Assembly (NCBI GenBank): GCA_000442015.1
Contig: KE560703.1
Location: forward strand, 1 to 37,510
Direction of reading: 5' to 3'
From: Rozella allomycis CSF55
Lineage: Eukaryota
DNA: 37,510 bases
Below the pieces are notes generated by a model. It did not search any database. It was not told the origin of the DNA and saw only the letters and a list, made by a program, of their open reading frames with translations. The position numbers were made by a program, and so were the translations under genes. This document shows, piece after piece, positions 1,062 to 27,177 of this stretch (position 1 is its first letter; every line of letters begins with the position of its first letter).

Positions 1062-3340
1062 ATGGAGTTTGCCAAGGCGTTTGTCGAGTGTCATTACAGC
1101 AAAGAGTAAAATAGCGATAAATGTTGAATAGGCTAAAGGACAGTTCTCTTGAGAGTTTGGTTGGTGGGATCCCTGTGCGATACACTAATTTGGAGGCAGC
1201 CAAGATAAAGGACTGGCTAGTTTATGCTATAAAATTGAGTGAGACTAAAGAATTCAAAGATTTCCACGGTATGTTGGTTGATCTTGATAGACATTTGAAG
1301 TTTTATTCGTTTGTCGCGTTGGAAGAGATTAGTCTTCCGGATATTATTATTTTCGGGGTTATTAAGGGATGCGGAAAAAAGTTTGATCGTGGCCAGTTTG
1401 ACAATATTAGCCGCTGGTATGACTGGATGGCTGAATGTAAAGCTACCAAGGATGCTGCTGAGCTTTTGAAGAAGAGTTCGAATGGCAAGGCAAAGGACCA
1501 AGGAAAATTTGATATTGACTTGGCTGGCGCAGAGTTTGGAAAGGTGGTGACAAGATTCCCGCCTGAGCCATCAGGATACTTGCACATCGGACATGCCAAG
1601 GCTGCATTGTTGAATGAGTATTTTGCACATAGATATGGAGGTGAGTTGATTGTGAGATTTGACGATACGAATCCATCAAAGGAAAAGTGTGAATTTGAGG
1701 AATCTATTTTGGAAGATTTGACACTGTTGGGAGTGAAACATGATAGATTTTCGCATACATCTGACTATTTCGAGGATATGATTAAATTTGCTGAACAGTT
1801 GATTAAGCAAGGAGACGCGTATGTTGATGATACAGTTCAAGAGAAAATGAGAGAAGAGAGAATGAATGGAGTTGCTAGCAAGTGTAGAGACTTGAGTGTT
1901 GAAGAGAATTTGAGAGTATTTGAGGAAATGAAAAAGGCTAGTGAAGAAGGAATGAAGTATTGTTTGAGAGCCAAGATGAGTGTTGATGCGAAGAATAAAG
2001 CGTTGAGAGATCCAGTTATTTATAGAATCAATTTGCAGCCCCATCATAGAACAGGAAGTAAATGGAAAGTGTATCCTACTTATGACTTTGCATGTCCAAT
2101 AGTTGATAGTGTGGAAGGAGTGACGCATGCATTGAGAACAAATGAGTATCATGATAGAAATGATCAATATTATTGGTTTATTGAGAAATTGGGATTGAGA
2201 AAGCCGTTTATTTGGGATTACAGTAGAATAAATTTTGAATTTACTTTGCTTTCCAAGAGAAAGTTGACTTGGTTTGTTAATGAGAAGCACGTTGAGGGAT
2301 GGCATGATCCAAGATTTCCAACTGTTAGAGGAATAAGAAGAAGGGGAATGACTATTGAAGCATTGAAGGAATACATTTTAATGCAAGGTGCTTCAAAGAA
2401 CACATTGTTATTGAAGTGGGATAAGATTTGGGCTATTAATAAACAAAAGATTGATCCAATTGCTCCAAGACACACAGCGATTGAAAATGATTCAGTTGTT
2501 GCTAGAATAAGAGGCAATGTTATGAATTATTCCAAGGAAGTTTTAAAGCACAAGAAGAATCCAGAATTAGGATTCAAAACGACTGAATTTTCCAATGAAA
2601 TTTTAATTGATAAAGTTGATGTTGAAACATTCGAGTTGAATGAAGAAATAACTTTGATGGATTGGGGCAACGCCTTTGTTAGAAATTTGAGTCCATTAGA
2701 ATTAGAATTGCATTTAGAAGGAGATTTCAAAAAGACAAAGAAGAAAGTAACTTGGTTATCAAAATCAAAGAATCTGATTCCCGTTGAATTGAAAGATTTT
2801 GATTTCTTGGTTTCAAAGCCTAAATTGGAAGAAGAAGATTCATTTGAAGATTGTCTTGTTAAAGAAACTGAGTTTACAACGCTTGGACTTGCTGATGCTA
2901 ATGTTAAAGATTTGAAAAAGGGCGATATTATTCAGTTGGAGAGAAGAGGCTTTTTTATTGTTGATAAGCCTTTTGATGGCAATTCAGTTTGTTTTATTTT
3001 GATTCCAGATGGAAAGCCTCAATCTACTATGCCAAGGGGTTATGTTGAACCAAAGAAACCTGAAGTAAAGAAGAAGCAAGAAGGAAAGAAAGACTCTAAG
3101 AAACAAGAAGGAAACAAGGAATCAAAGGAAGCACCAAATAAGAACTCTAACAAGGAATCAAAGGAATCCAATAACAAGAACTCTAACAAGGAATCAAATT
3201 CAAAAAAGGAAGTAAAAAAAGAAGAAGAACAAGTGAAATCTGGAATGTATCAGCTGAGTCCATTCATTAAAGAGAGTGATTATTCATTCAATATGGATGA
3301 ATTGAAGAAAGTAGTTTACGATTTGAAACCTTTACATTAA
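1062..3340 (+). CDS. GUS1: Cytoplasmic glutamyl-tRNA synthetase with N-terminal GST-like domain
   Basis: Motifs TRFPPEPSGYLHIGHAKA (HIGH), RFDDTNP and LLSKRKL (KMSKS-equivalent). A likely true ATG at 1062 plus a 26-nt intron at 1106-1131 joins the ORF-track frame (MEFAKAFVECHYSKE|LKDSS). Confidence 0.95.
3113..3198 (+). repeat. 36-bp coding tandem repeat (about 2.4 copies) in the Lys/Glu/Asn/Ser-rich GluRS C-terminal linker
   Basis: AACAAGGAATCAAAGGAA occurs at 3113 and 3149; AAGAACTCTAACAAGGAATCAAA occurs at 3140 and 3176. Confidence 0.8.
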
Positions 3341-3426
3341 TAAAATGCTTTAACTATTATTTTACTTTAAACATAATTTATTTATATTAATAATTTCACA
3401 AACATAATTTATTTAACTATAATGGA

Positions 3427-6400
3427 CTAAATGTTTGAAGCAAGAAGAGCGACACCATTTTGATAGAATGAATCAAAGCTTCCATCAGCAGGCAAATAAA
3501 CAACACAAATCAGTTCACTTCTGCTATTATCTCTGTACAATGGAACCTTGAGTTTATCGATGCAAGAATTATCATCACAAACCCAATCAACATAACTGTG
3601 AGGAACCAAATTCATTAATTCATTAGCCACTGAAATAGATCCATTTTGATTCACTTTGGCTCCAGAAAGATACAAATCTATTTATTAAACATTAAATATA
3701 TTTACTTGAAATGACTAGCGAATCATTTGATGGAATAAAGCTGAAATTCAAGCATAAATTTTCAAGAGAAACATTTAATTTCTTTGCGTATAATTGCCTT
3801 GAAGCAGTGAGGAACGCTTGAGGGTTGAAAAGACATCCAAAATCAATTTGCATCGTTTCATTCAAATTAGAAAAGTAAATGAATCTAGAGTTTAAATTAT
3901 TCAAGAATTTATCAAGAGAAATATTCTGAATTGGAAACATTTTCCATTCTAGTGGGATTTCAGCTGCATTGAAACAATTCAATAAAAATCTAGTTCTGTT
4001 TGTGTGTTTATCTTTTCTATCTAAAACTAATTTTAAACTATTCAAATCAAAAACAATTAAAGACAAAAGAGAATTACAAGTTTCAATTTGTCTATTAATA
4101 AAAGTTTCAATTGGATTTGAAGATTTGATTGATTTAATTTTGATATTTGAGAATTTGGTTAGATAATCGCTGATAGATTTGTAGATTGAATGGTTAGATT
4201 TAATTTGATCAGAATCTTCTTCTTCTTGCAACAAATTTGATAATTTTTTAACATTTTTAAAGATTGAATCTAGTTGGGATTTTAACATTGCAGTTTCAGC
4301 AAAGGGAGACAGACCAAGCAGAAGTGGATTTGTTGAATCTTTTAATTGATCAATCCAATCAAGATAATTTCTTCTTGGAATTTGAAGATTAAAAGTTAAA
4401 TATGAATCTGGTTGAAACATTTTAGGATTGAATAAATTAGATATAAAGGAATTGATGATTATTGAATCAAATTCATTATCAACTTTACCACCATAAACAA
4501 TTGAAGAGAGAATAGATTTAATTGAATCAAATGGAATTGAATTTGGATCAATGTTTGTTTTATTCTTGGCAATTTTATTAATTGAATTATTTATTAATTT
4601 AATAGCAAAATCATAATCAGAATCATTGAATTCATAATTCTTTGAGAAACCAATTGGAACATACAACAATCTCTCTTCAATAACAGATTGAAACCAAGAT
4701 AATAGAAATATCAATGTGTGTTTTTCAATTGGATTTGTAAAATGTTTTTCTTTGATTGTTGAATACAATGCAGCTTTAATTCCTGGTGGAGATTCAATCA
4801 AAACAATTCTCGAAATTCTAATTAATGAAACTGGAATTTTATTATTTTCAAATTGATTTAAATTGCATGTCATGAAAAGTTTACTTGATTTTGATTTAAA
4901 TGACAATTTTCTTTCCAATGTAGACAACCAATTAGAACAATGATGAATATTCTTCAACAATGTCCAATCTCCAGTAAAAGAAGAATTTAAAATTGATTTT
5001 TCTGCCAATTGAAATCCTTCATTTGATCCCATCGCTATCGTTGAAAGTTTAACGTTATTTTCATTGGCTAAATTTTCTATTCTATTAGATGCATCCATTC
5101 CCTTTGAACAAACTATTAAATAGATTTGATAATCTTCTTTAATACATTCACTTAAAATATCTTGTTTTTTATTATAAATTGAACATTTTAAATATTTTTC
5201 AATAAAATTTGAAATTTCAATCAACGCTTTTTCTGGTTTTGTAAATTTCATTTTTATTAATTCTGAAATTTCCTTTTCTATTTCTGAATTTTCCAAATTG
5301 TCTTTTTCATTCAACAAGAGTTTAATCAGCTCCACTCTTTCCCTTTTTAAATCTATTCCACTTTCAAATAATTCAAATTTGATTCCAGTTAACATTAACG
5401 CAAACAACACTTGATCATTAAAGGTCAAAGACTTGTAACATTTCTCATAAACTAACTGAAATAAATAATCTTTCAAATATTCAATTTTATCACCAGAATA
5501 TTCAACTTTAATAGCTTGAGAATAAATAGATTTAAAGAATTGAATAGAAAATTGATAAAAATGATTCAAACTCTCCATCTTTTCCATTAGAAAATAAATA
5601 CTAGATGCACATTTAGCAATTGGCAAATATTTCATAGTAATTGAATCAACTTGGTTCATAATAAAATCAGATTCATCATATTTTATTGTAATCTCTTTCA
5701 CTTGGTTCTTCAAATCTTCCAAAGAATCAATCAACTTATCATTATCAAGAATACTGCCTTGTGAATCATTCAAAGTCTGCAATAACTTCTTTTCTAAATT
5801 TCTCAAAACTAATTGATATTCCCCTTGCAGTTTCAAAATATCATTTCTCTTCTTTTCCATTTCTGGTTGTTCAGTCATCATTAGTTCATTCAAACATTGA
5901 GATTGCAAACTGGATTTGGTTACAGTGAAATTGGCAAACGTTACTCTGCTAGAAACATCTGGAGTAAACTTAAACGTTGGATCTCTAGTTATTAAATATA
6001 GTTGAAATGTCGGTGAGAAATCAATATCCTGATTACCTAATCTTACATTTAAACTGTTTAATTACCTAATATTAACTACAAACATTATATTTACCTATTC
6101 TAACAAGTACCCTTCCACCCGCTCTCTTATACTCTCTATTCAACAATGGATTAATAATAGGATCAATCATCTCAACATCTTCAACCACCAACGTATTCCC
6201 AAATCTAACACAACTCTCCAATGTCTTGACAAACGATTCATCCATAAAACTAGTAACATTCACATTCTGATTCAAATCACAAATCAGTTTCATCCCCTGG
6301 CCACTCGGATCAATAATCAATGGGTATCTCTTATGTCTCTTCATTATAATAGCATTCTCAATTGACACTTCATCATCAATTAAACTCTCCTTCCACTTCA

Positions 6401-9400
6401 TCCTCTCATCAACCAAACTCAAATACTCGCTAAAACTAAAATAATCTTTAAACACAATTCCAATCATCTTCATCACCCTCTTGCACTCTTTAAATATCTC
6501 TATTCTGTAATGCTGGTCATAATATCCATAATAACTCAACATCACACTAGACAGAAACACATCCCCTGATATAGTTTGCATTTGATTACCAAAATTTCTA
6601 CTCGTCTCTTCCCACCTCATCTTCTCTGATCCCAAATTGTCAATCAATTTCACAGATCTATCAACTCTAACTTGCACATTCTCCATTTCCTCTTTAATCT
6701 TTTGCGTCTCACTAATCAAAATGGCATATTCTTCTTTAATCACAGAAATATTAGACTCTAAATTCAATATTCTCTCTTCCATTTCATTAAACACTTTCCT
6801 AGTTTCATTTGCTTTTGATTCCAATTGCTCAACTTGGTTTCTCAATGGGCCAACTTTTTCTAAAATATCAGCAAAACTAATCTGCGCAATAACCCAACTG
6901 ACAAGGGGCCCACACGCTTTACTCGCTCTATTAACAGTTTCAAAATTAAACTGGGCATTATTCAAATACTCTCTTGATATCTTTTCTTTAATAATACTAG
7001 TTAAATGTTTATCTGTATCGAAATGTACAATAGAATTAATGAAATCATCTCTTCTTAGCACAGTTTGAACACTCTTCCATGAATCAACTTGATGCCCAAG
7101 TAGAATACAAACCGCCTCCATTGTCAATTTGACTGGATCTGGTGGATTTCCCATTGATCTCACTTCAGTCAATTGCTGCTTCTTTATATTGCTCACATTT
7201 TGTTTCGCTTCAATCACTGCAGGCTCAACCAGACTCAATTCTTCCATAACAAGTCTAGTTTGATTTTCAATGATCAATTGCTGTTGTTCCATTTCCTTCT
7301 TTATCACCAAACTCTTGGCTCTCTCTGATTCAGCTTCTTGCTGTTCTTTAACCATTCTCTGCAACTTTTCATTAGCTTCTCTATTCTTAATCTCCAACTG
7401 AATCTTCTTTTCTGCCAACTCTTTTTTCAACTCGGCAACCTTTTCAACAGTTTCAACTAGTTTATCTAATCCAACATTAACATGTCGTTGTTGATCTTCC
7501 AACTCTCCCCTCTTTTCATTGTACAGTTGAATGTAATGGTTCAATGATTCAACAAAATGTCTAGGCGTAATAAACATTTGCCTATTAAACAACTTGCAAT
7601 AATTTTTATTCATCTTTTTTATATAATTATGCACATGAACAAATATCAAAGCAATTTGGTAATACTTTGAATCAAAATTATACTTGATAATCTCCAAATC
7701 TTCAATCAACAAACTATCAACTAGAATTAAACAATAAAGAATTTCTTACAATTCCAAGTCAGAGCTTTATCATTTGAACTATTCAAATCCAATTTATTAA
7801 GAAATTCTAAGGCAACTTGAAACAATGAATTAGAGTTCCAATCACCAAACCAATCCAACACACATCTATTAAACAATGCAGGTGACGTTGAAGCTTTATT
7901 GTTATCTTCGCTTGGATTCATTGTAAACACAACATGCAAATTCAACATTATTTGATACGTAAACCATTTATACAATTCATCATGATTATCCAGCATTTGA
8001 CCTTGCTTTTGTGACGCTTCTTTAATCATTAACATTAATGAAGAGTATTCATCATCTTTAAATAACCCTGGTATCTCTGCATTAGCTAAAAGTGTATTAA
8101 TTCTTTCTAAAAATCCAGAATCTAAAACATTTGATTCATCAATGATAAAACAAATCTTTTCTCCTTTGCATCCACAGCGTTTCAAAATAGTTTTCAAATC
8201 TTCATCAAAATCTTCCATTTTGTATTTATTATGAACTTTCAATTGAACTATATTTAACCCATTCATCCACGCCACAAATTTAGACAATGTTGTTTTACCT
8301 TTTCATGAATAATATAAAGACTTACCACTTCCACTTGTTCCAATTAACAATAAATGACCTTGAATCTGTTTAAATACTCTATCAATTCTCAATACATGTT
8401 CCAAAACATCATCAAACAACACAATTGGAACATCCAACTCTTCTTCATAAAACACTTTCAATCTAGCTTTAACAAATTCTTTCAATTCTCTTCTTTCAAC
8501 TGAAATGTAATTCTTATTCAACCAATTAGAAAACAATATTGGTCTACTCAATGCTTTTTCATAATCAAAATTCTTGAAATTGTTTCTAGCCACTTGATCT
8601 ATTGTTTTATCAATCCATTCTCTTTCTTCTTTTCTGGTTAATCTATCACTAAACAATCTAATTCCTTCATGTGCCCAAATCCCTTTTAATATGTGACTAA
8701 TGTTGTTATTACTTGTGAGCATTTCCAATGTAACAAACTCCAATGGTTTAATACACTCATAAATACCTATCTTTATTCTAATGATTATTAATTACCTAAA
8801 TTGATTTAAACAATTTAAATTACCCCTCATCCATCTAGTTAATTCTCTGGGCGAGTAAATGTAATGATCTTGCACATTATCAGCTCCATTCTCACCTTGA
8901 CCATTCTCAACTACATTAATAGTAAACTTATTCTGATTCAACTCATAAAACTCAATCATAGCATCAGTCAGCGCATCCACATACATTCTCAAATTAGGAA
9001 TCATTTTCAACATGGATCTATTAAACGTGCCATAAATCTGCTTCAAACTAAATCTCTGCGGATACCCAACATACAACAACGGCGTATGTCTCAGAAACCT
9101 AATGGACAATGGCTTTCTACCTGTATCAGTCGGCGGGTTGCATGCACCTACAAATTGTATTCTTTCAATCCTTATAAACTGCTTGTCACTGGATCTCCAG
9201 AACCCACCTTGTTCAATCAGCTGACGCAGAAATGAAATAACTCGCTGCGTTCCATAGTCATCCTTGTTGGGTAGATTTATTTCATCGCAAAAGAGAATAA
9301 TCCATTGCCCTTCAGATGGAGGTGATAGAATTATTCCTTGGCTTGTCTTTCTGTATTCACAGTATTGCTCCAATGTTTTCAATATCATTTTTGGCAATGT

Positions 9401-12400
9401 TGCACTGCTGAAATTTAATGGAATCATTTGTATTTCTGGTAATTTTCTCAAAGCACTAAACAAGCACATTGTTTTTCCACTTCCTTTCATTAAGAGAATA
9501 ACCTTTTTGTACCTATGTTATTCCAAACTAATACAAATTACCTGGTGGACCACATAAAATGATTGGCTTATGCTCACTTAACCAAGAATACAATAAATCT
9601 TCATGCCTAATTGTATCAACAGTTGGAATAATAACATCCGCCTGCGACACCTTTTGTGTATCAACTTCAATTAATGGAACTTTGGTCTTCCAATACACCC
9701 ATTCACCCAATGGCAAACTACAATCAAATTCAATTAAATTATCTTCTGGTATTTCAATAATCGTAATCTTTTTCAAATATTCAAACAATTCATTTCTATT
9801 TTTAGAATCACCAACAAAACTCCACCTAAATTCAAACTGAAGAATTTAAATTTACATTAAAGAGATTAATAACTTTCTTTGAATGTATTTTTCCAATGTT
9901 TCTCTTGGCAAACTCATTTCATTTTGATAATTATAGATTAATACATTTCTAATACTCTTTTGAATTAAACCAAATAAAGTTTCAATCATTCTAATTTTTG
10001 ATATTTCCATAATATGATCCAAACTAGAACTTTTCTCCAACAATTTTGTTATCAATCCATCTTTAATAAAATATGGCGATAATATCTCAACACATTCTCT
10101 CTGCGTCTTTAAAATTGTTTCTTTATTAGTTTCTTCTAAATCATCTAAACATTTATTATTCAATTTATTAAAGAAATATTCATAAATGATATTCAATGGA
10201 ATAATTTCATCTGAATGGAAAATCATTCCACATCTACTAATTGTTGCTGGCGTTGCATAATTCAAATTCTCTACTTCAAATATAATTCTCACATTAAATG
10301 GTAAAGCTAATCGTTCCCCATTCGGTAGAGTCAAAACCTTTTCATTTCAAATTAATTCTAATTACCTTGTTGTCATCCAGAACAGAATTCAAATTCTCAA
10401 CCCATTCAGGATCAACATCACCATCAAACACAATCCAATGTCTTTTATTCATTTCTCCTCTAACATTATTAATAATTCTTCTCAATAGACTTGTAAACAA
10501 TCCATCGTTCCATTCACGTGTAGTTAAATCTAATGTTCCATACAAATCTTCTTTATTAACAGACTTTGGATCAATCACATACGAAACACTTTCAATTCCA
10601 TCAAACTGTTCCATTGATCTCAACAATGTTTTCCAACAAGATGATTTACCAGACCCTGATGGCCCAACAATCATTATTCCATGATGAATCTTTTGTATTT
10701 GATACAACTGAATAATCTTTTGAATCCACAAATCATAAGGTTGATAAAATGATTCTTTTCCAACTTTCTTGACAATATTCAATAATTCATCCATATTGGT
10801 TGATGAATATTTAATATTTGGAAATACATTATCCAGCAATTCTTCAAGCAAAGGTACATCTTGTCCAACAATCTTTGGCATCACTGTTTCAACCAAACTC
10901 TGCAGCAGTATTTTCAATTCTAATTCTTTTAAATTTGCATTTGAATTTATTTCCTTTAATTCTTTGTCACCACTACTACTGTCTCGTTTGATGTTGCCAG
11001 AACACGTTAAACAATTCTTCAATGCTCTCAACCCAAAATCATAATGACTCTGTTTACTCAACTGTTCATCACACAACTGAAACAACAACGTAACTTTTCT
11101 AGCCAACATTTCAGCATATTTGAATCCTTGTGAATACAACATTACTTGCGATATCATTTGATTGTCTGGTCTGGTCATTGCAACACTCTTGAACAGTTTC
11201 TTTAAATTATCTGGCAATTCAGATCTACCCAAGTAGCCTGGATTCATTGTAATAAATATTCCTGTATTTCCATTCACAATTATTCTCTTATTCAGCAATT
11301 CAATTTCCAAACCATTTGAATAATTTAAGGGTTTCAAATTATTTCTCATTGAACTATCACTTTCCCTTTCTAATCTACCTTCCGTTTCTCCATCTCCTTC
11401 TTGTTCACTTCTGATACCTTTAAGACAATTCTGAATAACTTCCACTTGCTGACTAACAGCCGACAAAATTTCAGGCTTCAATCTATTAAACTCATCAAAA
11501 CACCCAAATCCACCCACTTTGCATAATCCAATAAAGATTCTCCCCATTGCTTGAAAATCAAAATTCTCATCACAACAAAACACAAGCACAAATCTGCCCA
11601 GATGGTGGCCAAGTGATTTAACACTCTCAGTCTTGCCAGTTCCAGCTGGACCAAATGGCGACGCACCCAGCCCAGCATCTAATGCTAGTGCCAAAGTTTG
11701 GAAACATTTATTGGTGAGTGGTGTTTTGACTAGTCTGTCACAGACACCGAGGTATTCCCATCCATAATAGAATTTAGAATTTATCATTTCAATTGATAGT
11801 GATTTTAATGGATTTGATTCATTTAAAGTGAAATAATATCTTAACTGACTTGACCATTCAAAGGAATCTAAAATGATAAGACCATTGGAGTCTGTTAATA
11901 AGCTTTTACAAATATCTCTTTGATAGACACATTCTATAATTAAATTTTCAACCTTCTTTCTCAACAATGTGGAAATGTCAGTTAATACAATTTCAGATAA
12001 TTTATTCAACAAGTCATTAATAAAGGAAACAATATTATTCAATGGCATTTTAGATTCAACATTTCTAGTAAATGCTATTTGAAGAGTGAGAATGATCAAC
12101 TGATCTGGAGTATCATTTATCCACTCCATGAAAGAATTTAGAAAAGAAGAATCTATTTGAAACGAAGAAATAAATTACTTTCACTTTTATTCTCCTTCAA
12201 ACTACCCCTTTCACTTATAATACCCATTTCACCTACTACTTTCTTGTTGAACTCAAGTAGTGAATCGTGTAGTTTATAAACTAGAGTTGAATTGACTTGC
12301 ACTTCCAATTCACTCAACCACTCTGTAACCTTTCTATTATAACCAATTGGCGATTTCAACTGAATGACTTCCCCTTGCTTTGATTGAATACCATGAATAG

Positions 12401-15400
12401 CATTCTCATTAAACAATAGCGAATCAATGCCAGAAAACATCTTTTTGAAATGCTTTTGAATCTGATTAATATTCTTGTTATTCCCAACAATATCTAATAA
12501 ATCCAAATCACCAAGAAAATAAAAGCGAGGGAAATTTAATCTCTCTCGCTCTAAATAGTCACCCAGAGACTTTTGAATTCTGTTCAACATTTCTAGTAAT
12601 TTTTCCATTGATTTTTGAATGTGTGGAATATTTAAAACATTTAGAATTAAACTATTTTTAGAAACTTTTTTCATGATTGAAAAGAAATCAGTGTGGATGG
12701 ATTGAAATCTAGCAGACTCAACTGGCAATAAATGTTGAATGTCTGAATTGTCACTAAAAATACCTTCTAAATAGACCCATTGACGTTGAACATCAATCCA
12801 CACATCAAATAGTAATTGAATTTTAGTTAGTTTAGATTCCCAAATGATGCAATCTTGTTCAAATGGTTTAAAGAATGGAGAATTCTTCATTGATTTTAAA
12901 CCATTTAAATGTTCATTACATTTATTAAACAATTCATCCCAACCTTTTATGGTTTAAACATGTATTGTTACCTTTGATTAATTTACATTTATTTTGATAG
13001 TTTATTAAATCTAAATAATAATTTTCCCAAAATTCATTAATTTGTTTTAAATATTCTTCAATTGCTAATTCACCTTGCGATATTCTTAAAATTTCTTTTA
13101 AATCATTTTCATTTTTGTTTAAATTCCAAATAAATTTTAAATTCAAATCTGAAAATAAAATATTTGAAATATTTAAATTATTAAATAGAATTTTCCAATG
13201 TCTTTCTTTCATTGAAGGACCTTTTAAATCTATTAGAATTGAATTCATTTTAATAAATTCTTTAATCTTGTTGAATAGAAAATCAAAAGATTCGTATTGT
13301 TTAATTTTAAAAGGAATTTCTTTTAATTGATTTAAAATTGTTTCTAATTGATTTTTAACTCTTCTTGGAACAAAAACACTCCACAAAGTTTCACCAATTT
13401 CTTCAATTTGATTCCAATATAAACTTAAATTATCCCAAACTAATTTCACATCATTAAATTCTTCAATCAAATTATTTATTTTATCATTTTTATTTATTGT
13501 CAATTCCAATGCTTCTTTAGCTTTTAAAATTGATTCATTCTCTTCTTTAATCAAATTTAGTTTATTTTCAAATTCATTTAAATTGTTCAAAATATTTTTA
13601 AAATGAATTTTATCTCCTTTATCAACTTTAATTAAATTCCATTCTTTAATCAATTCATTCAAATTATTTTCATTTCCATTTTCTTTAACTAAAATTTGAT
13701 TCTTTAATTCATTCATTTTTTCTTTAATTATTTTATTTTTTCTTTCATAAATTTCATTTAAACAATCAAACTCTCCTTTAATCTGTTCAAAATAGATCCA
13801 TTCACTTGGAAAATTAAATTTATTATTTTCTAAAATTCTTAAACTAGATTTGAAATTTTCTAATCTATTTTCATACTCATTTTTATTCTTTTTAAACTTT
13901 TGAATCAATGAAATTAAATTTATTGCAAATTTTGATTCAATGGAATATTGTTCAATCTCTATTCTCAAATTAAATATTGTCTTGTAAAACTCTTTAATCT
14001 CTCTTCCAACTTGACTTCCAAACTCTTTAATCAATTCTCTTTCAATCTCCAAATATTTATTTTTAACCTTCTTTTCAATCTGTCCAAATTCTAATATAAA
14101 ATTTCCAATTATCTTTCTATTAAAATTTGTTTCAATCATTTTCCTATTCTTTTTAATCTCAATAAATATATTCTGCCATTTCTCCAAATCTACTCCCAAA
14201 TCTTTCTTTATTATCTCTTCAATATTAATCTCCCACAATGTCTCATAATTCTTAAACTCTTTCACAAATTTATTAATCTTTATCATTCTCTCCTGAATAA
14301 CAAAAATAGCCCTGGAAAACTCTTTAATTGATTTCTTTAACAATTCTTCAAATGTTTCTTCTGTATTCTCTACCTGGAATTCTCTAACTTTAATCTTTTT
14401 CAATTTACACACAACATCTATCATTAAACTATTAATAACTTTTTACTTGTAATTTCATACAGATTCTCAAACATCACTTTTCTAGCCATTTCAATTGGTG
14501 GTTGAATAATCAATTTATCATTCTTAAAAACTACCTTATGTCTAGACACAGCAGTTGCAATATGTGTATTAAAAGTATTAGAAACATGAGTGTCGACATT
14601 TCCATCTACTTCGCTGTCTAATAATTCATTTATTCCATTTATTTTCCCTGCTGCTTCTTCAACTAGCTCAAATCTCTTTATCCATCCAGAAATACCAACA
14701 TTCAACCTCTCCTTCAACAACTCACAAATTCTCTCATTCAATTTACACACATAAAACGGAACATTAGAAAATCCCTCCAAATTCATCTTATCAATCACAC
14801 CCTGGATCTCTCTCAATATTCTCTCAAACGTTTCCCTACAATACTCTACATTCTTCATCATCAAACTCTTCTCTTCAATCTCTTTAATCATCCCAATAGC
14901 AACCATCGTCTTTTCATTAAAATTATTAACAACATTATTCAAATCCCTAACAAACATCACATACCTATTTTCAACAACATTCATCGCTAAATATGCATTA
15001 ATGAAATTCTCCCACGTTATATTTATCCCCCTCTTCATCAGCTGCTGGAATTCACCCAAATAACAATCAACCAAATTTAAAACATCTTCATTCTCTCTAA
15101 TCATCGCCATCGTCTCATTATAACTATTCATCGTCTCCATCAATGACATCGCATGCGGATATATCCTCTTCCCATCCTTGGCTAAATTCATCACAGAATG
15201 CGGAATGGGCAAATTCATACTCTTCATATTCCTAACTTCTTTAAACAACGTAACCAATTGATACTCAAAAGATACATTCACTCTCAACAAATTCCCTACA
15301 CTCTTCTCAACCTTAAACACTCTCCCTTGTATGATCAATTCCTTTTTATTAATCTCTGCCAACCACGATTCAAATATCTTTTAAATCTAAATAAACTCCT

Positions 15401-17269
15401 TACTGGTTTAACATCCAATTTACGCATAAAATTTTGAATCTCATTAGACAACTTTGAGCCTTCTGTATACATTTCCCATCCTTTTCCCAACACATCTTCA
15501 ACTTTCTTCACTACAATCTCCAACTGTCGCTCAATTTGCTTGGCCCACATTATCGCACCAGAATAACTAGGAATGTCCCTAATCAAACTCAATTGTGCTG
15601 TATCTGAATTATGATACTCCATTGTAAACTTTTGCTGCAGCTGTTTAATATCCGCTTTTACATTCTCAATCAACTGGTTCTGATACTCTTGCACAGCACT
15701 TCTAATCTTTGGTCTCACAAATAGACTATTAAAATTAGCAAACGCTCTAAACATTTCAGTTGCATTCTTGGATCCAGATAATCTTTGTCGCAAAATAACT
15801 ATAATTTGATTCTCAATCTTTGATATTTGCTCATTGTAATTCATTTCTGCTAAATTCCACTGCTCAGCTCCTTCAACACTCAAATCCAACACATCAACAT
15901 TTTTCACACTCTCATAAGCCCTTTCAACATCTTCAACTGCCATCAACTCACTCTCAGACACCTTGGAAATCGTCAAATACAATTCTTCATGTTGTTTCCT
16001 AAAATTACTAATAAACACAATCTTTTCTTGAATTTTCAAATGCTTGTTAGTCATCTTCATTGTTAAAAACTTGTCTCCCCTCTTTCTGCCAATTTCTCTC
16101 GCCATTATTGAAAATTCTTGGAACTGATTCTCCCAAACTTCAAACACCTCCAAACAACTCTTCATCAACTGCTCAAACTCTTCATATCTCAAATACATCA
16201 ATCTCTTCTTCTTCAAGACTTTCATTATTTGTTCACTCAAATCACTGGAAATCGCTTCAACAAGCCCCAACGCTCTCTTCACTGGATATGGACTCAATTT
16301 CAACTTTTTAATTAAATGTCCAAATATCCCAAACAACGCCTCCTTGATCTTTTCCAAATCTTGAGCTGCCAGCAAATCAGACAACGGGAACTCTTTCATC
16401 AACTGATTATACTTCACAACCATCTCACTTGTCTCTTTCAACCCTGTATCCGCTAAAAATCCAACAGTCGCATGAAACCTCTTTGCATGCTTCAACACTT
16501 CCATAGTCAACACTATTCACAAATCAAAATTATTCTTACCAACATCATCATTCTTCAACTCTTGCTCAATTTGATTCAATGCCCTTTCCATATTCATCCA
16601 GAAATTAATCTCCTGACTAGCCGATCCAGACCCAACATCTCTATTCAATTTAGTCACCTTTTGAATCTCCTTTATCCACCCATTGACCTGTCCCTGCAAT
16701 CTAATCAAGAACGCAGAATCATTCAAAAGCTCTTCAGGCACATCATCAACACTCGCCCTCCTATTCTCATTCCTCGCTCTCTCCACAGCCTTCTTAATCT
16801 CCACATCAACACCCAACAACACTCTCGGGATATCCATATTCTCATGCAAATGCAACAACGCAATCTCCAACTCGGCCATCTTCTTCTTCGTCTGCGGCAC
16901 AATCCCGCTGCTCACCCCTCCCTCGCTCTCCTGCACAAACAAATCAAACATCGGAGACGCAAACCGATGGATACACGAAAATAAAACCTCAATCGCAGAG
17001 CCAGCCGGAACATACATGATCAACACCTGCGAATTTATCTCGGAACTCTCGTCAATACTCTGCTGCTTCTTGTACAACACACACCCCTCACACGCTTGCA
17101 CCGTGTTGTCCATAAACACCTCGCCGTCCCTGCTCCCAATAAAAAGAACAGGCGAATCTTGAATAAATAATTGGAGCTTCTCAGACTTTACACTTGATAA
17201 TAGAATATCTTGCTCACAGTTTAAAAGTGGTGGGACCACCCTCAAAATGTACTGCCGTAATTGTTCCAT
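3427..17269 (-). CDS. DYNC1H1: Cytoplasmic dynein 1 heavy chain, about 4463 aa, 13 intron positions
   Basis: P-loops GPAGTGKT (AAA1), GPSGSGKS (AAA2), GPPGSGKT (AAA3) and GTSGSGKT (AAA4); stalk/microtubule-binding domain ([13 protein letters not shown]); N-terminal tail. Ten single introns (26-30 nt, 278 nt total) and three double introns (173 nt total) leave 13392 nt, exactly 4464 codons. Confidence 0.96.
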
Positions 17270-17575
17270 GACCAGGGTAGCCGGATGGAGGGAGATTTGG
17301 ATATACTAATGCTAAATTGTATTAAACATAAAGACATAAATGAACTCTTCTAAAGTTCCCTAACGTCAATCAAATTTATTCGTTTTCAATTGGCTTTGCA
17401 AACCTACCCGATGAAGATATATAAGGGAAGAGATGGCGATTGATAAAATACTAATTCCGAAAGATCTATTTGTGTTGTGACACCACCGTAACAGCAATTA
17501 GAATATGTTTTTAATTGTTTAAAGGAAATGATGCTTTAATTAAACTAGCATTAACAACTAAACGAACTTTAATAA

Positions 17576-18568
17576 TTGGCTTGTGGTGTTTGCATTTTTT
17601 TGATAAATAGTCTTCACTTGATTTTTCAGGAATCTAAAAATTTCACTAAATTCTATTTTTATTTATATCGGTGTGCTTGTACCAAGCCACATATAATGAG
17701 AAAGAATCAAGTTTTCGAATTATTCAAACCTACAAAACGAAGTGAAATCTTTGGGTATTATACAAACTGCATTTTTTATTTCCTAAAACTTATCCCTTTA
17801 TTCAAGGATCCCATTGAATTTTTGATTCTGTTTTTATTGTTCGATGATACTGCAGCGTTTTATTTAGCCTTGTTAACAACAGGTCGCTTTGTTTTGTACA
17901 TGTTAGACTTGAAACACGGCAAAAAAGCATATAGTAACGGTGATCTAGTTGGACTTTATTCTAACACTTTTGGTTGGATGACATTTTTGGTATCCAGCAA
18001 GAATCATTATTGTTTTGCAAACGCTATACTAAAAGAGAAAACAATATATGAATCACTATTACTAAGAGTGTGGCAAGCCAAAAGAAGTAATGCACGTTTG
18101 TAAATGTTTTTAGAATATCTTGAGCTACTTTTCTTTGTAGCGCCATATTATTTATTGTTATTTCAAGTGAAACCTTTAGAATTTCATGGGTTGACTGGAG
18201 CGTTAAATATCTTGTCCATGATAGGTTTGGTTATAACATATTTTACAACATCCTTTTTCATGATGTTGTATCCATTTTTGACAATCCTTTCATGCAAAAC
18301 AATAGGAAATCAATGTAAAGATCGGTTACACCGAAAGTAGATTATATTTTTACTTTTTATCAGGATGACAAACATTTTGCAAGACGCAATGATGCGTGAT
18401 ACAGTTCAGAATAGATGTATGTCATATCATGAAGCAATTGGTGGAAATACAATGCACAGTGTTCAGTTAAATAACCAAGCGAATTTTTCTTCGACTTATT
18501 ATGCAAACGCGCATTCTACAATTAATTTATCGCCTGAAAGTATCGAGGGAATCAACAGGGCATCATAA
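17576..18568 (+). CDS. Hypothetical multi-pass membrane protein; start and C-terminus uncertain
   Basis: Three consecutive ORFs join in frame via two 27-nt GT-AG introns (gtaatgcacg...tttttag; gtagattata...ttatcag). Several hydrophobic stretches; no family recognised. Confidence 0.5.
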
Positions 18569-18878
18569 CTGACGACGCTCCTCCTCCTTACACCATAATT
18601 TGAATCAAAGAAGGCATTTTCAGCATTTTATTGATATTAAGTTAGTAACATATGTAATAAACTGATTTTTGACATGTTATGTCGTATTCCCTTTTGCATT
18701 AAATAATACATATGTGACTGCTGAGTAGTTCAAGACAAGTTAAACATATTGGGACATTGACAAAAGGCGACATCCGATACTGATATTCAAAAAACTTAGG
18801 GTTACAATTTTTTTGAATATGTTATCGCTGTGGAAAATTCCGCGCAAACCCTTGTCCTTGACTACTGAATTTTCACGA

Positions 18879-20403
18879 ATGCTGTCCTTTAGATTTCTAC
18901 CATCTAAGATCTTCCCACGGTCAATCCAAAATCAAAGGCGATTTTTGTCGATCCATGAGTATTTGTCAATGGGATTGCTATCAAAGTATAAAGTTCCGGT
19001 CCCTAAAGGCGATGTTGCAAGAACCCCTCAAGAAGCCTACCAAATTGCACAAAAATTAAGTAATTAACTAAATTATATGACAATCTAATAGATACTGAAG
19101 ACATGGTTATTAAAGCACAAGTCCTAGCCGGCGGGAGAGGTAAAGGAACATTCACCAATGGATTGCGTGGAGGAGTGAGAACAATTTTTTCGTAAGATTT
19201 AAAATGTCTATATCATAGTCCTACCGAAGCGAAAATGTTCGCAGAACAAATGATTGGTCAAAAATTGGTCACAAAGCAAACCGGGGCGGCTGGTCGGGTT
19301 TGCAATTCGGTAAAAAGTTGAATACATATAATTTACAGGTATTCATCTGTGAAAGATTATTTGTGAGAAAAGAATACTATTTCGCCATTTTATTGGATAG
19401 AAAAACAAGGGTAATGCAAATTTATCATCACGAAAGGGACCCGTAGTGGTAGCCAGCTCCCAAGGAGGCATGGACATTGAACAAGTTGCAGCTGAAAATC
19501 CTTCAGCTATTTTATCAGTTCCGATTGATATTAATAGAGGTAATAATTCTATTTGGACTATATCCAGGGTTGACAGCTGACGTTGCCCGTGATATTGCAA
19601 TTAAGGTTGGATTTAGCAAAAAATGTGTCGACCAAGTATTTCGTTTTAATATTTTATGAAAGGCCACTAACGTCATGATGAATCTCTACAAGCTTTTTCT
19701 TGAAAAAGACGCTACCTTGGTCGAGATCAATCCTTTGGCAGAATCTGCGGATTCAAAAGTTGTTTGCATGGATGCGAAATTAAACTTTGATGACAACGCT
19801 GACTTTAGACAAGAGGATGTAATGAAGCTACGTGATCCAAGTCAAGAAGATGCAAGAGAAGTGAAAGCAGCTGACTTTAAATTGAACTACATTGGCTTGG
19901 ATGGAAACATAGGCTGCTTAGGTAATATATGTTGATCAGATAGAAAAGTTAATGGCGCTGGGTTAGCGATGGCAACCATGGATATCATCAAACTTCATGG
20001 AGGTGAACCGGCCAACTTTCTTGATGTTGGAGGTGGTGCGACAGCCCAACAAGTAACTGAAGCCTTTAAAATCATTTCATCTGATCCAAGAGTATAACGA
20101 TGAACTATATCTAAGTAGGTGTCTTGCATTCTTGTAAATATTTTCGGAGGAATAATGCGGTGTGACATTATCGCCGAGGGGATTATTTCCGCTGTGAATC
20201 AATTAAATCTAAGCATTCCTCTTGTTGTGCGCTTGCAAGGAACAAGAGTAGATGAAGCTAAAGCTTTAATTTCCAAAAGCGGATTGAAAATTGTATCGGT
20301 TGATGATCTTGACATCGCAGCAACAAAAGCTGTCCAAATGTCGCAAATTGTTCAATTAGCTAGAAAGGCAAATATGCAAGTGAAATTTGAATTACCGATT
20401 TAA
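18879..20403 (+). CDS. LSC2: Mitochondrial succinyl-CoA ligase beta subunit (8 introns, 26-32 nt)
   Basis: Transit-like N-terminus followed by [48 protein letters not shown] and [10 protein letters not shown]. Confidence 0.95.
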
Positions 20404-20488
20404 AAATACCTAATAAATCCCCTTCCCTATACATTTCATATTTTTCTAGAATCTTCATTTAGGAAATTTTGGAACACCCTGGTAGCAA

Positions 20489-22187
20489 ATGTCTAGTGCA
20501 GCTGTTAAACTCATTAACCCAGGAGCTGATGTTGCAAGAAGCAGCCAAACACTTCAAATTAATACGACCGCAGCCGGTGGATTACAAGAAGTTGTGAAAA
20601 CAAATCTTGGGCCTAAGGGGACACTGAAAATGTACCTAATGATTTAATAATTAAGAATAGGCTTGTTGGTGGAGCAGGAGATATCAAATGTACTAAAGAT
20701 GGAAAGGTATTATTGAATGAAATGGTAAAATTGTAAAGTCAAAAAGATAGCAAATCCAACACCCTACTGCAGCATTGATTGCCAGAGCTGCTACAGCGCA
20801 GGATGATATTACTGGGGATGGAACTACCACCATTGTATTAATGATTGGCGAATTGTTGAAAATGGCCAACAGATATTTAGCTGATGGACTGCATCCACGA
20901 GTCATTACTGAAGGGTTTGAAATTGCCAAGAATGAGGCATTAAAGCTTTTGGAAGAATTTAAGTTGAAAATAAACATTGATAGAGAAGTTTTGGTAAATG
21001 TTGCACGCGCCTCATTGCGTACAAAAGTTCATCGTGATTTGGCTGATGCGTTGACAGAGGCTGTTGTGGATGCTGTTTTGGCAATCAAGAAGGATGGAGA
21101 ACCAATTGATTTGCACATGGTTGAGATTATGAAAATGCAAAGGAATGCAGATACTGATACACGTTTAGTGAAAGGATTAGTAATGGATCATGGTGCTAGA
21201 CATCCCGATATGCCAAAGAGAGTTGAAAACGCATATATTTTAACATTGAACGTTTCTTTAGAATATGAAAAAACTGAAGTTAATTCTGGCTTCTTTTATA
21301 GTTCAGCAGAACAAAGGGAGAAACTTGTTGAATCTGAAAGAAAATTCATTGATGATAGAGTTAGAAAACTAGTAGAATTTAAAAAGCAAGTTTGTGATGG
21401 AACTGATAAATCCTTTGTTATTATTAATCAAAAGGGGATTGATCCTTTGTCTTTAGATATTCTTGCAAAGCATGGAATTTTAGCTCTTCGTCGTGCAAAA
21501 AGAAGAAATATGGAAAGATTACAATTAGCTTGTGGTGGAGTTGCTCAAAATTCAGTTGATGAACTCTCTCCTGAAGTCCTTGGATATGCTGGCCTTGTGT
21601 ATGAACAAGTTTTGGGCGATGATAAATTTACGTTTATTGAAAATGTTAAAAATCCATTATCAGTTTCAATTTTGATTAAAGGGCCAAATTCTCACACTTT
21701 AACTCAAATTAACGACGCTGTTAGAGATGGATTGAGAGCTGTTAAAAATGCTATTGAAGATAACTCTGTGGTACCTGGAGCTGGTGCTTTCAATGTTGCA
21801 GCTTATAACCATTTAATGAAATTCAAAGATAGCGTCAAAGGGCGTGCAAAGTTTGGTGTCGATGCTTACGCCCAAGCTCTTTTGGTAATTCCAAAAACTC
21901 TCGCTGCCAATGCTGGTTTAGACGTTCAAGATGCTATTGTCGCTGTCCAAGAAGCTGCCTCTAATGGTCATGTTGCTGGCTTGGATCTTTCCACTGGAGA
22001 AGCCATGGATCCAGCTGTTGAAGGTATTTGGGACAACTATCGTGTTCATCGCCATATTTTACATTCAAGGTAACATTTCTTATAATTAATTTCTAGTACT
22101 GTTATAGCAAGCAATCTTTTGTTGGTTGATGAAATGATGAGAGCAGGAAGATCTTCCTTGAAAACGTCAAGTATTCCAAATAATTAA
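20489..22187 (+). CDS. CCT6: Chaperonin CCT/TRiC subunit zeta (3 introns)
   Basis: [51 protein letters not shown] and C-terminal [10 protein letters not shown]. Confidence 0.96.
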
Positions 22188-23013
22188 TAAAAGAATTTCC
22201 TCTTTAAATATTTTACTTTATTTCTATTGCCGTATTGCTGTTCATTCCTCCATAAAACAGTGGTGTAACCAGTACAGTTAAGACTTAAGATCCTCCCCAT
22301 AAAACAGTGAAAGAGTATTACAACAAAACATTAAATAGAAGATTTTAATACTAGAAGAGATTTTGCTTCTTCTCTGAGGCTGGCAAAGGATACGGCGTAT
22401 GTGCACAAAATTATTCACACTGACTTTGTGAATAATCTTGACGGCATTCATGAGTACTTTTAGTCGAAAATCCAGCTGTTGTTTTGCAGAGGAAACATCT
22501 AGTTTCAACACATGAAGAAAATTATCATCATGCGAAGACCTAATCTCAGCAACTTCAATCTTGCAGGCGATTCAACTAGAAAACGACACCGCACTACCCG
22601 CAAATCCAATTCCAGCTCAAGTAAGGAAGGAAATTCAGGTTTCACTTCCCTTATTAGCCCTACGCCAGAACAAATTAGCATTTGCCGCTGGGATCTGTTT
22701 ATACAGAAGGTTACTAGGTTTTTCATCTGGAAGAGGTTTGCCAGATATTCTACTTCTGTCAGGGATTTTATCAGAGAGGACTTTGTATAGCCTCCTTTTT
22801 CTAAGAGATTGTTCTGTAAGAAATCCCGCCTACATGTCAAGCCGGTCCAATAGCCCTCCATGAAAACATTAATGTCTTAAATAATTCAAGTAAATTACTT
22901 GACCTCAGTTATAAGTTCCATCGGACATCGATGTAGGCTGCTGGAACGACAAGGTGAATCTAAATAATTAATAAAAGAATTGTGTCATTAAATCTTTTAT
23001 TTTAATATTAGGC

Positions 23014-25117
23014 TTATGCAACCTTAATAGCCGAATTGCTGATATTCATTTTCTCCGCCTTTTTCGCCAATTTTTGATGATAAGAATTAACCATGTTCAT
23101 GAGATTGTCAATTTCATAAGAATTGTCCATGTCATCAACACTCTCCTCAATTTCTATGTTTTATATATTTAATTCATACTTTGATTTATCTCGTATAAGC
23201 TTTCTTCCAAAGTAGCAATTTTTCGTTTTAATGATTCCAGTTGCGAAAAAGTGTCATTTTGCTGCAAGGTACTTTCTTTTTCCCTTAAAGTAGCAAGAAT
23301 GTTATCTAATTTTTGCTTAACATCCTTTCTCGTCTTCTTTAAAACCTCTCTATTTTCAATATTTCTCTACATAATTTGGCTGTCTCTTAAGGTACCTTGT
23401 TGGTTTCCTCAATTTTTCTTTTGGCATCTTCAATGTTTTCAAAAGTTTCGAGTTCCTTTTTCATCTTTTCTCCCGACTCATGCAGTTTTGCAATTTCCTG
23501 TTCTACAAGTCTCTTTTGTTCTCGTGTCTTTACAAGCTCTAAATAACGCACATCATATTCTAAATTTTCAATATCCAATTCATTCACCTCTTTGTAACTC
23601 TTCTGGTTCCATCAATTTCAATTCCTTTTTCAAAGACGTAAGATCAAATTGTTCCTGATCAAGTGCAGGATATAAGTCTTCCGTTATATTCTTATATAAT
23701 TTTAACTGCTAATTCATACTTTAATACTTTCTGTTATTCTAGAAATGTTCTTTTCTGATTCATATATTCTCAACTCCAAATTCGACTTCTTTGCATCGTA
23801 AACATTCAAAAAGCTCTGTATTTCAGAGTCACGTTTTATCAAATCCTGGATCTTTTCTCTTTTTTCTGCCGAATAGTTTTGTGAATCATCAAAATCTTGC
23901 TGTTGTTGCAAAACGTTCTTGAATTTGGTTATGCTCTCTTGAAGTTCCTGAATTTTTCTTTCCATCGTTGATATCTCTACATTATCTTCCTTAATCTAAC
24001 TTTTCATTAATGCTTAAGTGTACTTGATTCAAAAGCATTTCTTTTTCTTTGTTTGCATCGATCGATTCAACCTGGGACCGTAAAGTGCTTTGCTCTTCAT
24101 TAGAAATCGCCTGTTTTGCCAGCTCTATTTTGACAAGAATCTCAATAGCCTTTTTCTTTACCGACGAGTCTTCGAAATTCTATTAAAACCTCTATATGTT
24201 ATTACCATTGCTAGCTGTTGATATTTATTCTTTAAATCATCTGTCTGTTTTTGTAACTTTAACAATTCTTTTTCGTCGTCACCTTGCTTGTTTCTCAAAT
24301 TGTCGTATTCACTTTTTAAATCATCTCCCTTGATTTTCTTAAATCTGCCTTTATTACCAGAGTTGATATTAATTGATTGATTTTCATGTTTTCTTCTTCA
24401 ATTAACCGATTGATGTCTTTAAGCATATTCTCATTCCTGTCACAAACGCATGATTATGGCCTTACTTTTGTGACTCCACAAATGCTTCATTAACAGCACT
24501 TTGAAGAAGGTCATTTTTCACATTTAATGCTTCAGAATCTTTAACTAGATCATCAATATCCCTATCTTTTTGAATCGCTTCAAACATGGTATTATAGTCC
24601 CCGAGCTCATCTTGGAGTTTGTTAACATCCTTTGTAATATCATCGGCTCTAATCTTATGCATGAATTAATTATAATACCGTTTTTCATAATTCATGTAGT
24701 TATCTTCTTCTTTTGACATTAATTCAACATCGGCGTTCAATTTTTCAATCTCTTGAGTAATCAATGTGATTCTTTGTTTAAACTCGCCGATGAAAAAATT
24801 TTTATCTTGATATACTCGTGCATTAGATCCTCCATAGCCCGTTTTTAGACCACCTATTCCAGTGACTGGTCGATTCAAATTTCCTTGTTTGAATCTTTCG
24901 AGCAGCGATTACCTTTCATAGTCATAGGTCTATTCATTATGCTAGTTTTTGGAGGCTAATGCTAAAAATTCATATGTATTACTAATCCGTTGGCTGTTTG
25001 CACGTTTGGCCCTGCGCGAGTTGGAAGCCTTCTACCCCATGCTATTTGTTGGAAACTTCAAAAATTACATGATGGAACTGGCCTTGAAGATGTTACTGGC
25101 CTATTTTTTTGAGTCAT
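23014..25117 (-). CDS. IFT74: Intraflagellar transport protein 74 (12 introns; start may lie up to about 50 nt further upstream)
   Basis: Basic N-terminus with repeated RP(M/V)T motifs, GGLKTG...RVYQDKNFF, YEKRADD...LQDELGDYN and QIKEDNVEISTMERK, followed by a long coiled coil. Confidence 0.85.
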
Positions 25118-25300: not shown

Positions 25301-27129
25301 ATGCCCCTATTTTCTTCTAAAATTGATGAAGCTGTTGAGAAAGCGACTTCAGGATACTTGCCTACAGCAAATGAAGATATTATCATAAATTTGGATGTTT
25401 GTGACATGATTAAAAGTAAAGAAGTGGATTCGAAAAACGCAATGAGAGTGATAAAGAAGAGGCTGCTACATAAAAATCCAAATGTACAACTCTTAGCATT
25501 AAAGGTAAATGTGATTATATTTTATTCCCAGTTAACAGACTCCTGTGTAAAAAATGCAGGGCACCATTTTCTAAAGGAAATCGCATCTAAGGAATACGTT
25601 GATTCATTAGTATCACTAGTACAGATTCAAGTATATTATCTCTAATTTTTGGAAAACACAGGCTACAAACCCTCAAGTTCGATCAAAAGCTCTTGAGTAT
25701 ATCCAATATTGGGCGCTAGCTTTTCGATCCAAGAGTGACTTGAATTATATGTGGGATATGTATAATCTTTTGAAAAATGATGGTTTCAATTTTCCTCCGG
25801 CTCCAAGAGTAGATTCTTCATTCCTGGACACACAGACAGTAAATTACACCATTGATTTTGACGAAGGCTCCTGAATGGACGGATTCTGAGAATTGCACTC
25901 GATGCAGAGCTCCATTTAGTTTAACAAATAGAAAGCATCATTGCCGCAATTGCGGGCATACATACTGTCAACGATGCTCATCAAAAACCGCCCCATTGCC
26001 TCATTTTGGCGTAAACGAATATGTCAGGGTTTGTGACAGCTGCTTCAATCGAAAATGGTAATAGTCTGTGTATTTTTGAACTAGCGCTCCACCATCATCT
26101 TTTGATGCTAGTGTAGTTCAAGACAATGGTGACGCTGATTTACAAAAAGCTATTCAACTCTCTATGATGGAATACGAAGTAAGTTACAAAAACTAGGCTA
26201 TAAAAAGAATAAATTTGAAAAAAAGGCGCCTGTGTTTGAAGTAGACGAAGACCCTCTACTTAAGGCAGCTATTGAGGCGTCCTTAAAAGATCAAGAAAGA
26301 AAAATTGATATTAGACATGAGGCAAAAAAGGATTTTTCATTGGCCTACGATACTAGCAAAATTGCTTACGAGGCTACACCGGAACCAACTCCAGTACCAG
26401 ATCCCGAATATGAACTGCCTGTTCATAAAGCTCAAAACCAAGCTTTTGATGAGGTGGCGGTTTCGAATGATTTGACAACTGTTGACAGAGAAAATATTGC
26501 ATTATTTATTCAATTACTTGACAATGCCGAAAGGGCAGGAAATGTGCATACAAACCCAGCATTACAGGTATTTATTTGAAAAATAGCTAAATTAGAGTCT
26601 TTATACGAAAATGCTGTATATTCGGCAAAAACTCGAGGTTAACTTGAAGGAGGCAGAGCGCAAATACGAATACTATTACAACAACCTCGAAAAAATTAGT
26701 CATGCGACAAGGCAATATGATAGCCTGCTTGAAAGCCGTATTAGCTTCGTCAATAATATTCCTTTTAGCCAGCCCCAACATCAAACGCCCGCGCTGCAGA
26801 ATTTAGGACATCCAAATTCGTATTTAAATAATAATGGTGCCAATTTCCCAAAAAATGAATATCCAAATGGAGAACACTATGTAGGCGTCGATAACACTCA
26901 ATCAAATGCTGTCAGTCAAGTAAATCCCAATTTTCATACTCATCATATCCCTAATACTGCAAATAATATGCAGAATGCAGCTTACTCTAATGGCATTCAG
27001 TACAATCCTGGATATTCTTTTGCTCAGCATCAATCACCTTACCCTGTTGCTCCTCAAGATGCCACTATGAAAATGTCAAATACTGGCAATGAGCGTAAAT
27101 TTGAAGACAAACCCTTAATTGACTTGTGA
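25301..27129 (+). CDS. VPS27: ESCRT-0 subunit Vps27/Hrs (VHS-FYVE-UIM; 6 introns)
   Basis: VHS (VEKATS...NPNVQLLAL...CVKN), FYVE (WTDS...RKHHCRNCG...RVCDSC), two UIMs ([18 protein letters not shown]) and C-terminal clathrin box LIDL. Confidence 0.93.
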
Positions 27130-27177
27130 AAATAAATAGTTCAAGTTCCATTTGGTAAATTTCGATTTCTAAATTAC

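Follow-up and report, generated by a model that had tools for sequence, protein, structure and literature searches.

How introns multiply is a long-standing question, and recent events are seldom caught. Minisatellites, or VNTRs, are repeats of head-to-tail units of about 30 nt, with mosaic neighbours, higher-order periods, copy differences and turnover polarity. At the level of RNA, recursive splicing at zero-length exons is described for the ratchet points of Drosophila, which read YAG|GT (PMC5126111), for SPNCRNA.445 of S. pombe (336 nt; 10.1101/226894) and for BOT1 of C. neoformans (375 = 210 + 165 nt; 10.1101/224170). The stwintrons of ascomycetes are described as compound introns which are removed by consecutive U2 splicing reactions (PMC8469720). 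Finally, the Rogers model derives new introns from genomic DNA which holds a proto-splice site and has been duplicated in tandem (PMC2891723, PMC3296678).

Here we analyze a stretch of 37,510 nt from Rozella allomycis CSF55 (contig KE560703.1, positions 1 to 37,510), in the following called the window, and in it a 58-nt interruption of a dynein gene (minus strand, 6094-6037). As in the recursive splicing of these reports, a 3′ splice site abuts a 5′ splice site downstream within an interruption that is wholly removed. The reported cases, established on RNA, comprise long introns and a handful of scattered introns of yeasts, whereas the present one is predicted from DNA; its pieces are introns of the normal size of 26-31 nt, they are apparent copies of each other and related runs reach 12 units. 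With the Rogers model, as set out in the cited papers, our locus shares a tandem duplication of DNA around AG|GT which yields a spliceable unit and leaves the protein unchanged. In that model, however, exon is copied and a new intron position arises, whereas at 6094-6037 the intron appears to be copied and the position is unchanged. The resemblance to the stwintrons of the cited account lies in a fungal compound intervening sequence and in a consecutive removal which may apply here too. A stwintron has its outer intron split by the inner one at the donor, the branch point or the acceptor, and this forces the order of removal; here the two units stand side by side and both keep intact GTAA and TAG ends, and we do not class 6094-6037 as a stwintron. 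The arrays described below share with minisatellites the head-to-tail units of about 30 nt, the mosaic neighbours, two-unit periods, copy differences and turnover polarity, but every array unit makes up a whole intron, and selection apparently acts on the internal junctions. The locus would work like zero-length-exon splicing, and it shares the DNA logic of intron gain by tandem duplication. No description of tandem mini-intron arrays in this lineage was found in a search of titles and abstract openings that covered few subscription journals.

The double intron of the dynein gene

The host gene (3427..17269, minus strand) codes for a fungal-type cytoplasmic dynein heavy chain, as judged from homologs, Pfam profiles and the gene model; the best named homologs are fungal and 52-54% identical. 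Its 14 intron positions comprise 11 single introns of 26-30 nt and three doubles. In the AAA5 domain the 58 nt from 6094 to 6037 divide into two abutting 29-nt GT..AG units. Unit 1 (6066..6094, recovered also by the gene model) and unit 2 (6037..6065) both run from GTAA to TAG, and TAG|GTAA is found at all three junctions: between exon and unit 1 (6091..6097, exact homology of 3+4 nt, first copy of a 7-nt direct repeat), between the units (6062..6068, a zero-length exon and candidate ratchet point) and between unit 2 and exon (6033..6039, last copy of the repeat). The units and junctions given in the initial annotation are therefore borne out, and our recount of the ungapped matches between the halves likewise gave 20/29.

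The upstream exon (6095..7720) encodes the end of AAA4, the stalk and the first half of AAA5, and the downstream exon (3706..6036) the second half of AAA5, AAA6 and the lid (Pfam profiles, gene model). Removal of the 58 nt, which interrupt a Gly codon in phase 1, joins two segments of the Pfam domain AAA_9 (profile positions 2-110 and 103-222). The contiguous AAA5 motif then fits 117/120 homologs, and the spacing of the flanking motifs equals that of 100/120 homologs and differs in one, the remainder being without a scored motif. This spacing argues that all 58 nt are removed. When all GT..AG choices of 22-35 nt were enumerated, three readings turned out to be stop-free. One of them costs two residues. 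Among the three the 29+29 reading fits best: acceptor and donor abut within the removed sequence in the YAG|GT form of a zero-length exon (TAG|GTAA, 6068-6062), and homolog spacing and residues speak for pieces with no exon bases between them, which disfavours the micro-exon reading weighed below. The mature mRNA is identical whichever 29-nt unit leaves first. An RNA run (X1), compared with window positions 3400-23300 at 80% likeness, gave short pieces of mostly less than 90% likeness; 6056-6719 was uncovered and no intron joint was seen in them.

The initial annotation had treated the AAA5 double alone. The site is real, but it is part of a wider array system, and two further doubles of the same gene had been missed. 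One (29+29, 9484..9541, minus strand) lies in the P-loop Gly codon of AAA3 and has unlike halves (interior similarity 0.23); the other (28+29, 8767..8823, minus strand) lies in the AAA3 lid (0.51). All three doubles (9541-9484, 8823-8767 and 6094-6037) are in phase 1 and inside a Gly codon. Two single introns of the gene with the context AAG|GTT are unexpanded. Outside the dynein gene the gene model predicted no arrays in the rest of the window.

Likeness of the halves and arrays in the genome sample

The sample comprised 821,795 bases, window included, of the 11.86-Mb R. allomycis assembly; from C500, C611 and C699 long stretches were taken without interruption (560 kb, below called the continuous stretches), and another 225 kb or so had been picked because pattern searches had shown arrays there. 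Introns outside the dynein gene were called with an ab initio, self-trained gene model seeded with 17 dynein units. The model returned 14/14 dynein intron positions, which is a weak check since it had been seeded with dynein units. It predicted 1,413 intron positions; the 1,268 that were kept (both exons at least 45 nt, no N) consist of 1,164 singles, 83 arrays and 21 positions with a piece longer than 34 nt. Nine arrays with a possibly coding end unit were excluded. The resulting 74 predicted arrays have 2-12 units each and include 27 doubles; the continuous stretches plus the window hold 872 singles and 18 arrays. An array of 12 units (L081, 5204-5543, that is C719:35204-35543) and one of seven (L071, 702-909, C332) may serve as examples. 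The predicted density of about 2.3 introns per kb coding sequence agrees well with a published value of 2.5 per kb for R. allomycis (PMC8476143). Almost all predicted singles (1,146/1,164) are 26-31 nt long. The units of arrays range from about 26 to 33 nt; with 28.3-29.3 nt they exceed the singles (27.6 nt) by roughly 1 nt. A pattern search against its reversed pattern (223 vs 210) was uninformative, as the reversed pattern holds a common coding word; stricter array patterns gave 63 vs 5 and 79 vs 5. By eye, one of the 21 putative long introns (C611:145955) resembles a gene start.

Are the two halves of 6094-6037 more alike than chance would have it? Random pairs of 29-nt single introns match at 13.2 positions on average, and at least 20 matches are reached by 118/23,436 pairs (0.5%). 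The initial annotation had warned that AT-richness and shared splice sites inflate the identity, and so they do: in pairs matched for GTAA..TAG ends and a GC content of at most 21% the mean rises to 15.5, and 11/378 reach at least 20. The same threshold is reached by 5/136 pairs matched for GTAA..TTAG ends and by 40/3,855 unit pairs from different arrays, and interior shuffles reach 20/29 in 2.1% and 5.0%. The annotation had also held that the duplication would fall if random pairs were often about 70% identical; such identity is in fact rare, with 3-5% even among matched pairs. With the fixed ends removed, the interior similarity of the halves is 0.59, a value reached by 104/30,000 random single pairs, 9/811 consecutive singles of one gene, 19/3,240 same-gene pairs and 1/702 cross-double pairs. 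The pair ranks second among the 27 doubles, although it had been picked for the likeness of its halves. The identity is thus above chance, suggestive alone and not decisive, and it lends moderate support to a duplication of this pair (p of about 0.005 without matching and of 0.03-0.05 with it).

For the arrays as a class duplication is strongly supported. Adjacent units have a mean similarity of 0.50 (n=191) vs 0.31-0.32 in four controls, and the similarity decays with lag (0.50, 0.43, 0.37, 0.33). At least 0.75 is reached by 25/176 adjacent pairs, and one pair is identical. Two arrays have a two-unit period, which points to copying at the DNA level. The first adjacent pair is more similar than the last (0.56 vs 0.45). 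The doubles, taken together, exceed cross pairs in likeness only slightly (0.37 vs 0.31, p=0.009), so that most of them are old or of other origin. One array occurs twice in the assembly: one copy has three units, the other has four or more full ones and a piece of a further unit. Array segments doubled beside an N were seen in L066 (C611:151055-154148), L072 (C485:2897-3473), L074 (C559:6827-7184) and L079 (C648), with unit sequences or unit numbers that differ between the copies. These doubled segments are probably alternative haplotypes and may confuse gene models.

Arrays and singles also differ in their exon context. Exon AG|G flanks 55/74 arrays vs 97/1,164 singles, which holds in every phase and within the continuous stretches (10/18 vs 63/872); exon AG|GT flanks 35/74 arrays vs 31/1,164 singles. 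Broken down by flank, the counts for arrays and singles are 35 vs 31 with AG and GT, 7 vs 141 with AG but without G, 2 vs 71 with GT but without upstream G and 2 vs 449 with neither. A requirement on both sides is predicted by slippage between the outer junctions, and not by selection on the donor context alone. Splicing itself could also favour exon AG. At 6094-6037 seven exact bases are shared, which 4/1,164 singles and 6/74 arrays reach. Against the role of microhomology speak the two unexpanded AAG|GTT singles of the dynein gene and the comparison within AG|G sites, where arrays do not surpass singles in the homology outside the core (p=0.17-0.19). Of the arrays 47/74 are in phase 1. The genes with arrays have a median predicted coding length of 3.8 kb vs 1.1 kb; AG|G sites hold arrays in 7/14 cases in genes longer than 5 kb vs 3/59 in shorter genes, and arrays lie more 3′ in the gene (0.61 vs 0.47, p=0.001). 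The bias to long genes and to their 3′ parts indicates that an additional factor is at work.

Internal splice sites, polarity and folding of the arrays

The acceptor is TAG in 155/176 internal vs 28/74 terminal positions, and 42 terminal acceptors are AAG. The terminal ones resemble those of singles at AG|G sites (TAG 36/97). The shift is also present in the continuous stretches (27/31 internal vs 10/18 terminal) and in arrays which do not match the TAG-requiring search pattern (74/92 vs 15/45). In doubles a first acceptor with T followed by a second one without T occurs 15 times, the reverse not once. As exact copying predicts equal ends, the shift suggests selection on internal 3′ sites, like that at the YAG|GT ratchet points (PMC5126111), and it suggests that the internal acceptors are used in splicing. 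As to a branch point, no more than a weak excess of TRAY near -7/-6 was seen.

Arrays with at least three units start with a unit rich in G, or in purines (G 0.21, C 0.05), and close with a C-rich one (G 0.06, C 0.18). This G-to-C polarity is found in 42 vs 5 of 47 such arrays on both strands, in 7/7 of those in the continuous stretches and in 23/24 genes, whereas the same test on consecutive singles reveals no bias (413 vs 403 of 856). In doubles the polarity is weak (18 vs 8 of 27, and 5 vs 6 of the 11 that lie in continuous stretches), and the pair at 6094-6037 does not show it. The last array unit differs from the singles of its own genes (p=3e-10), and the polarity stops short of the third codon positions on either side. 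A regional mutation bias as the source of the C-rich last unit is unsupported, with downstream third codon positions being C-poor (0.08).

Where an array has three or more units, pairing between its first and its last unit is slightly stronger than in controls that were shuffled or drawn across arrays (p=0.006, p=0.005). For array hairpins, shuffles within units gave a mean z of -0.56 to +0.15; whole-array folding was not significant against cross-half controls (p=0.22, 0.06, 0.56), and pairing of the last unit with all upstream units gave p=0.054, or p=0.15 against other arrays. A hairpin at 6094-6037 was rejected (z=+0.9; z=+0.7).

Probable duplication of the intron and competing explanations

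We consider it likely that 6094-6037 consists of two complete introns which arose by tandem duplication of one 29-nt intron between AG|GTAA repeats. The introns of this genome are 26-31 nt long, and the outer junctions share TAG|GTAA plus an imperfect likeness further out. By slippage or unequal crossover, with repeats that lie one intron length away from each other, the whole intron would then have been duplicated. At the internal junction created in this way a 5′ site necessarily comes after a 3′ site, so that the protein would be unaltered. The two copies would have drifted to 20/29, and a length-limited spliceosome would remove the pair in two steps, so that the internal site is kept under selection. 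With two copies, the longer homology would let arrays grow and shrink like minisatellites; the site at 6094-6037 remained at two units. Slippage or unequal crossover at AGGTAA microhomology had already been proposed in the initial annotation; the AG and GT flanks on both sides across the sample speak for it, but a single-intron ancestor was not seen. No close relative was found, and the own genome gave one match. The proposed route to intron gain holds insofar as spliceable units are added at an existing position, but no new intron position is created.

For the relatives, 80 metagenome loci were kept of 522 confirmed; they belong to distant fungi with 62-66% protein identity. None of the 58 distant loci covering the site has an intron at the position of 6094-6037, and none of 79 distant loci has one at either of the other two dynein doubles. 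Apparent interruptions in two relatives (L127, L140) are chance motif matches. The position at 6094-6037 may be lineage-specific, although loss in the distant lineages is also possible.

A lineage-specific position leaves room for a birth from exon DNA, in which a Rogers-type 29-nt duplication over an exonic AG|GT created the intron, which was then recopied or triplicated, so that both units would go back to the adjoining ends of the exons and have decayed since. The upstream exon indeed ends with TAG and the next one starts with GTAA. The outer junctions match at 20/30 positions, which 0/1,164 singles reach, and 9/11 of the last nucleotides of unit 2 match the end of the upstream exon; read in the exon frame, this tail ends with V-R-L where the exon has V-R-I and 103/117 homologs have L. 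The absence of the intron from the 58 distant loci agrees with such a birth as well. With the TAG|GTAA context fixed, 20/30 has P=0.5-5.6% against single introns, but P=3-24% against array units, and a statistic which admits either unit is unremarkable (p=0.33-0.66). For arrays in general exon ancestry was rejected: an excess over permuted flanks (0.482 vs 0.447) is gone with shifted flanks, the likeness of arrays to their own exon flanks being 0.311 vs 0.293 for shifted flanks of those exons (p=0.19, n=32), and no codon-position pattern was found in it. An off-register chimera test gave no excess between the exon-1 tail and the first unit (p=0.55); for the exon-1 tail and the last unit it gave p=0.02 and for the exon-2 head p=0.09. 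We regard this origin of the AAA5 double as improbable. The same holds, to an equal degree, for units of independent origin, with a second intron that entered the first one's AG|GT junction, for instance by reverse splicing, or a 58-nt intron that gained an internal site, the likeness being an AT-rich coincidence. The matched nulls, which reach 20/29 in 2.9-5%, allow for coincidence, many doubles such as the one in the P-loop are without likeness, and introns have been proposed to insert at AG|GT (PMC2891723). Insertion at one junction, however, needs no AG and GT on both outer sides, the identical and two-unit-period neighbours of other arrays indicate copying of DNA, and the rarity of 0.59 among cross-double pairs speaks against independence.

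Two alternatives to duplicated introns removed in two steps concern the splicing. A 10-nt micro-exon (6075-6066) flanked by introns 6104-6076 (GTTA..TAG, 29 nt) and 6065-6037 is stop-free, leaves the frame open, likewise removes 58 nt and keeps the homolog spacing. Yet it would turn a conserved R/Q (R in 100 and Q in 17 of 117 homologs) into I and the preceding I/V into L, which occurs in 1/117 homologs, and its donor GTTA is used by 6/1,164 singles vs 831 with GTAA. We hold this structure to be very improbable. It is still rather unlikely, though less so than any of the foregoing, that the 58 nt are spliced in one step, perhaps helped by folding, with the internal site as an unused relic of whatever origin. 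The pairing between first and last units of the longer arrays would fit such a removal; against it stand the internal acceptors, which are shifted to TAG more than copying predicts, the confinement of array units to about 26-33 nt, the unfolded state of 6094-6037 itself and the failure of whole arrays to exceed the cross-half controls.

Coming back to duplication followed by stepwise removal, we tentatively suggest a wider scheme, which we rate as less probable than the duplication at 6094-6037 itself. Obligatory, length-limited stepwise splicing might act on intron minisatellites which form by slippage at AG|G(T), mostly 3′ in long genes. Selection could make the arrays polar, with internal TAG, G-rich upstream units and a C-rich last unit, so that the ends pair and either set the order of removal or unite the outer sites; the dynein doubles would represent the two-unit stage. 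The pair at 6094-6037 would be a modest, aged two-unit example of the larger array system in the genome sample. Whole introns are seemingly copied in place at predictable AG|G junctions, with copies of all ages, and from the arrays at these sites a rate and a mutational rule for intron copying might be measured. As the arrays add units and not positions, they would explain how introns grow where their size is strictly limited, and to a lesser degree how new intron sites originate. The 58-nt substrate is also a compact test case for recursive splicing.

Some minor observations concern the same locus and its surroundings. The micro-exon reading (6104-6066, minus strand) might represent a possible minor isoform. 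Within the dynein coding region, positions 13001-14000 have a very low GC content (0.19), and strong strand skews run along the gene. An intron of 119 nt predicted on the plus strand (27095-27213) is without internal AG|GT units; perhaps the prediction is an artefact, or perhaps the length limit has exceptions. The neighbours of the dynein gene, all on the plus strand, are a class I (E/Q) tRNA synthetase (1121-3340), a TCP-1/cpn60 chaperonin (20751-22073) and a PH/ArfGAP protein (35205-35861).
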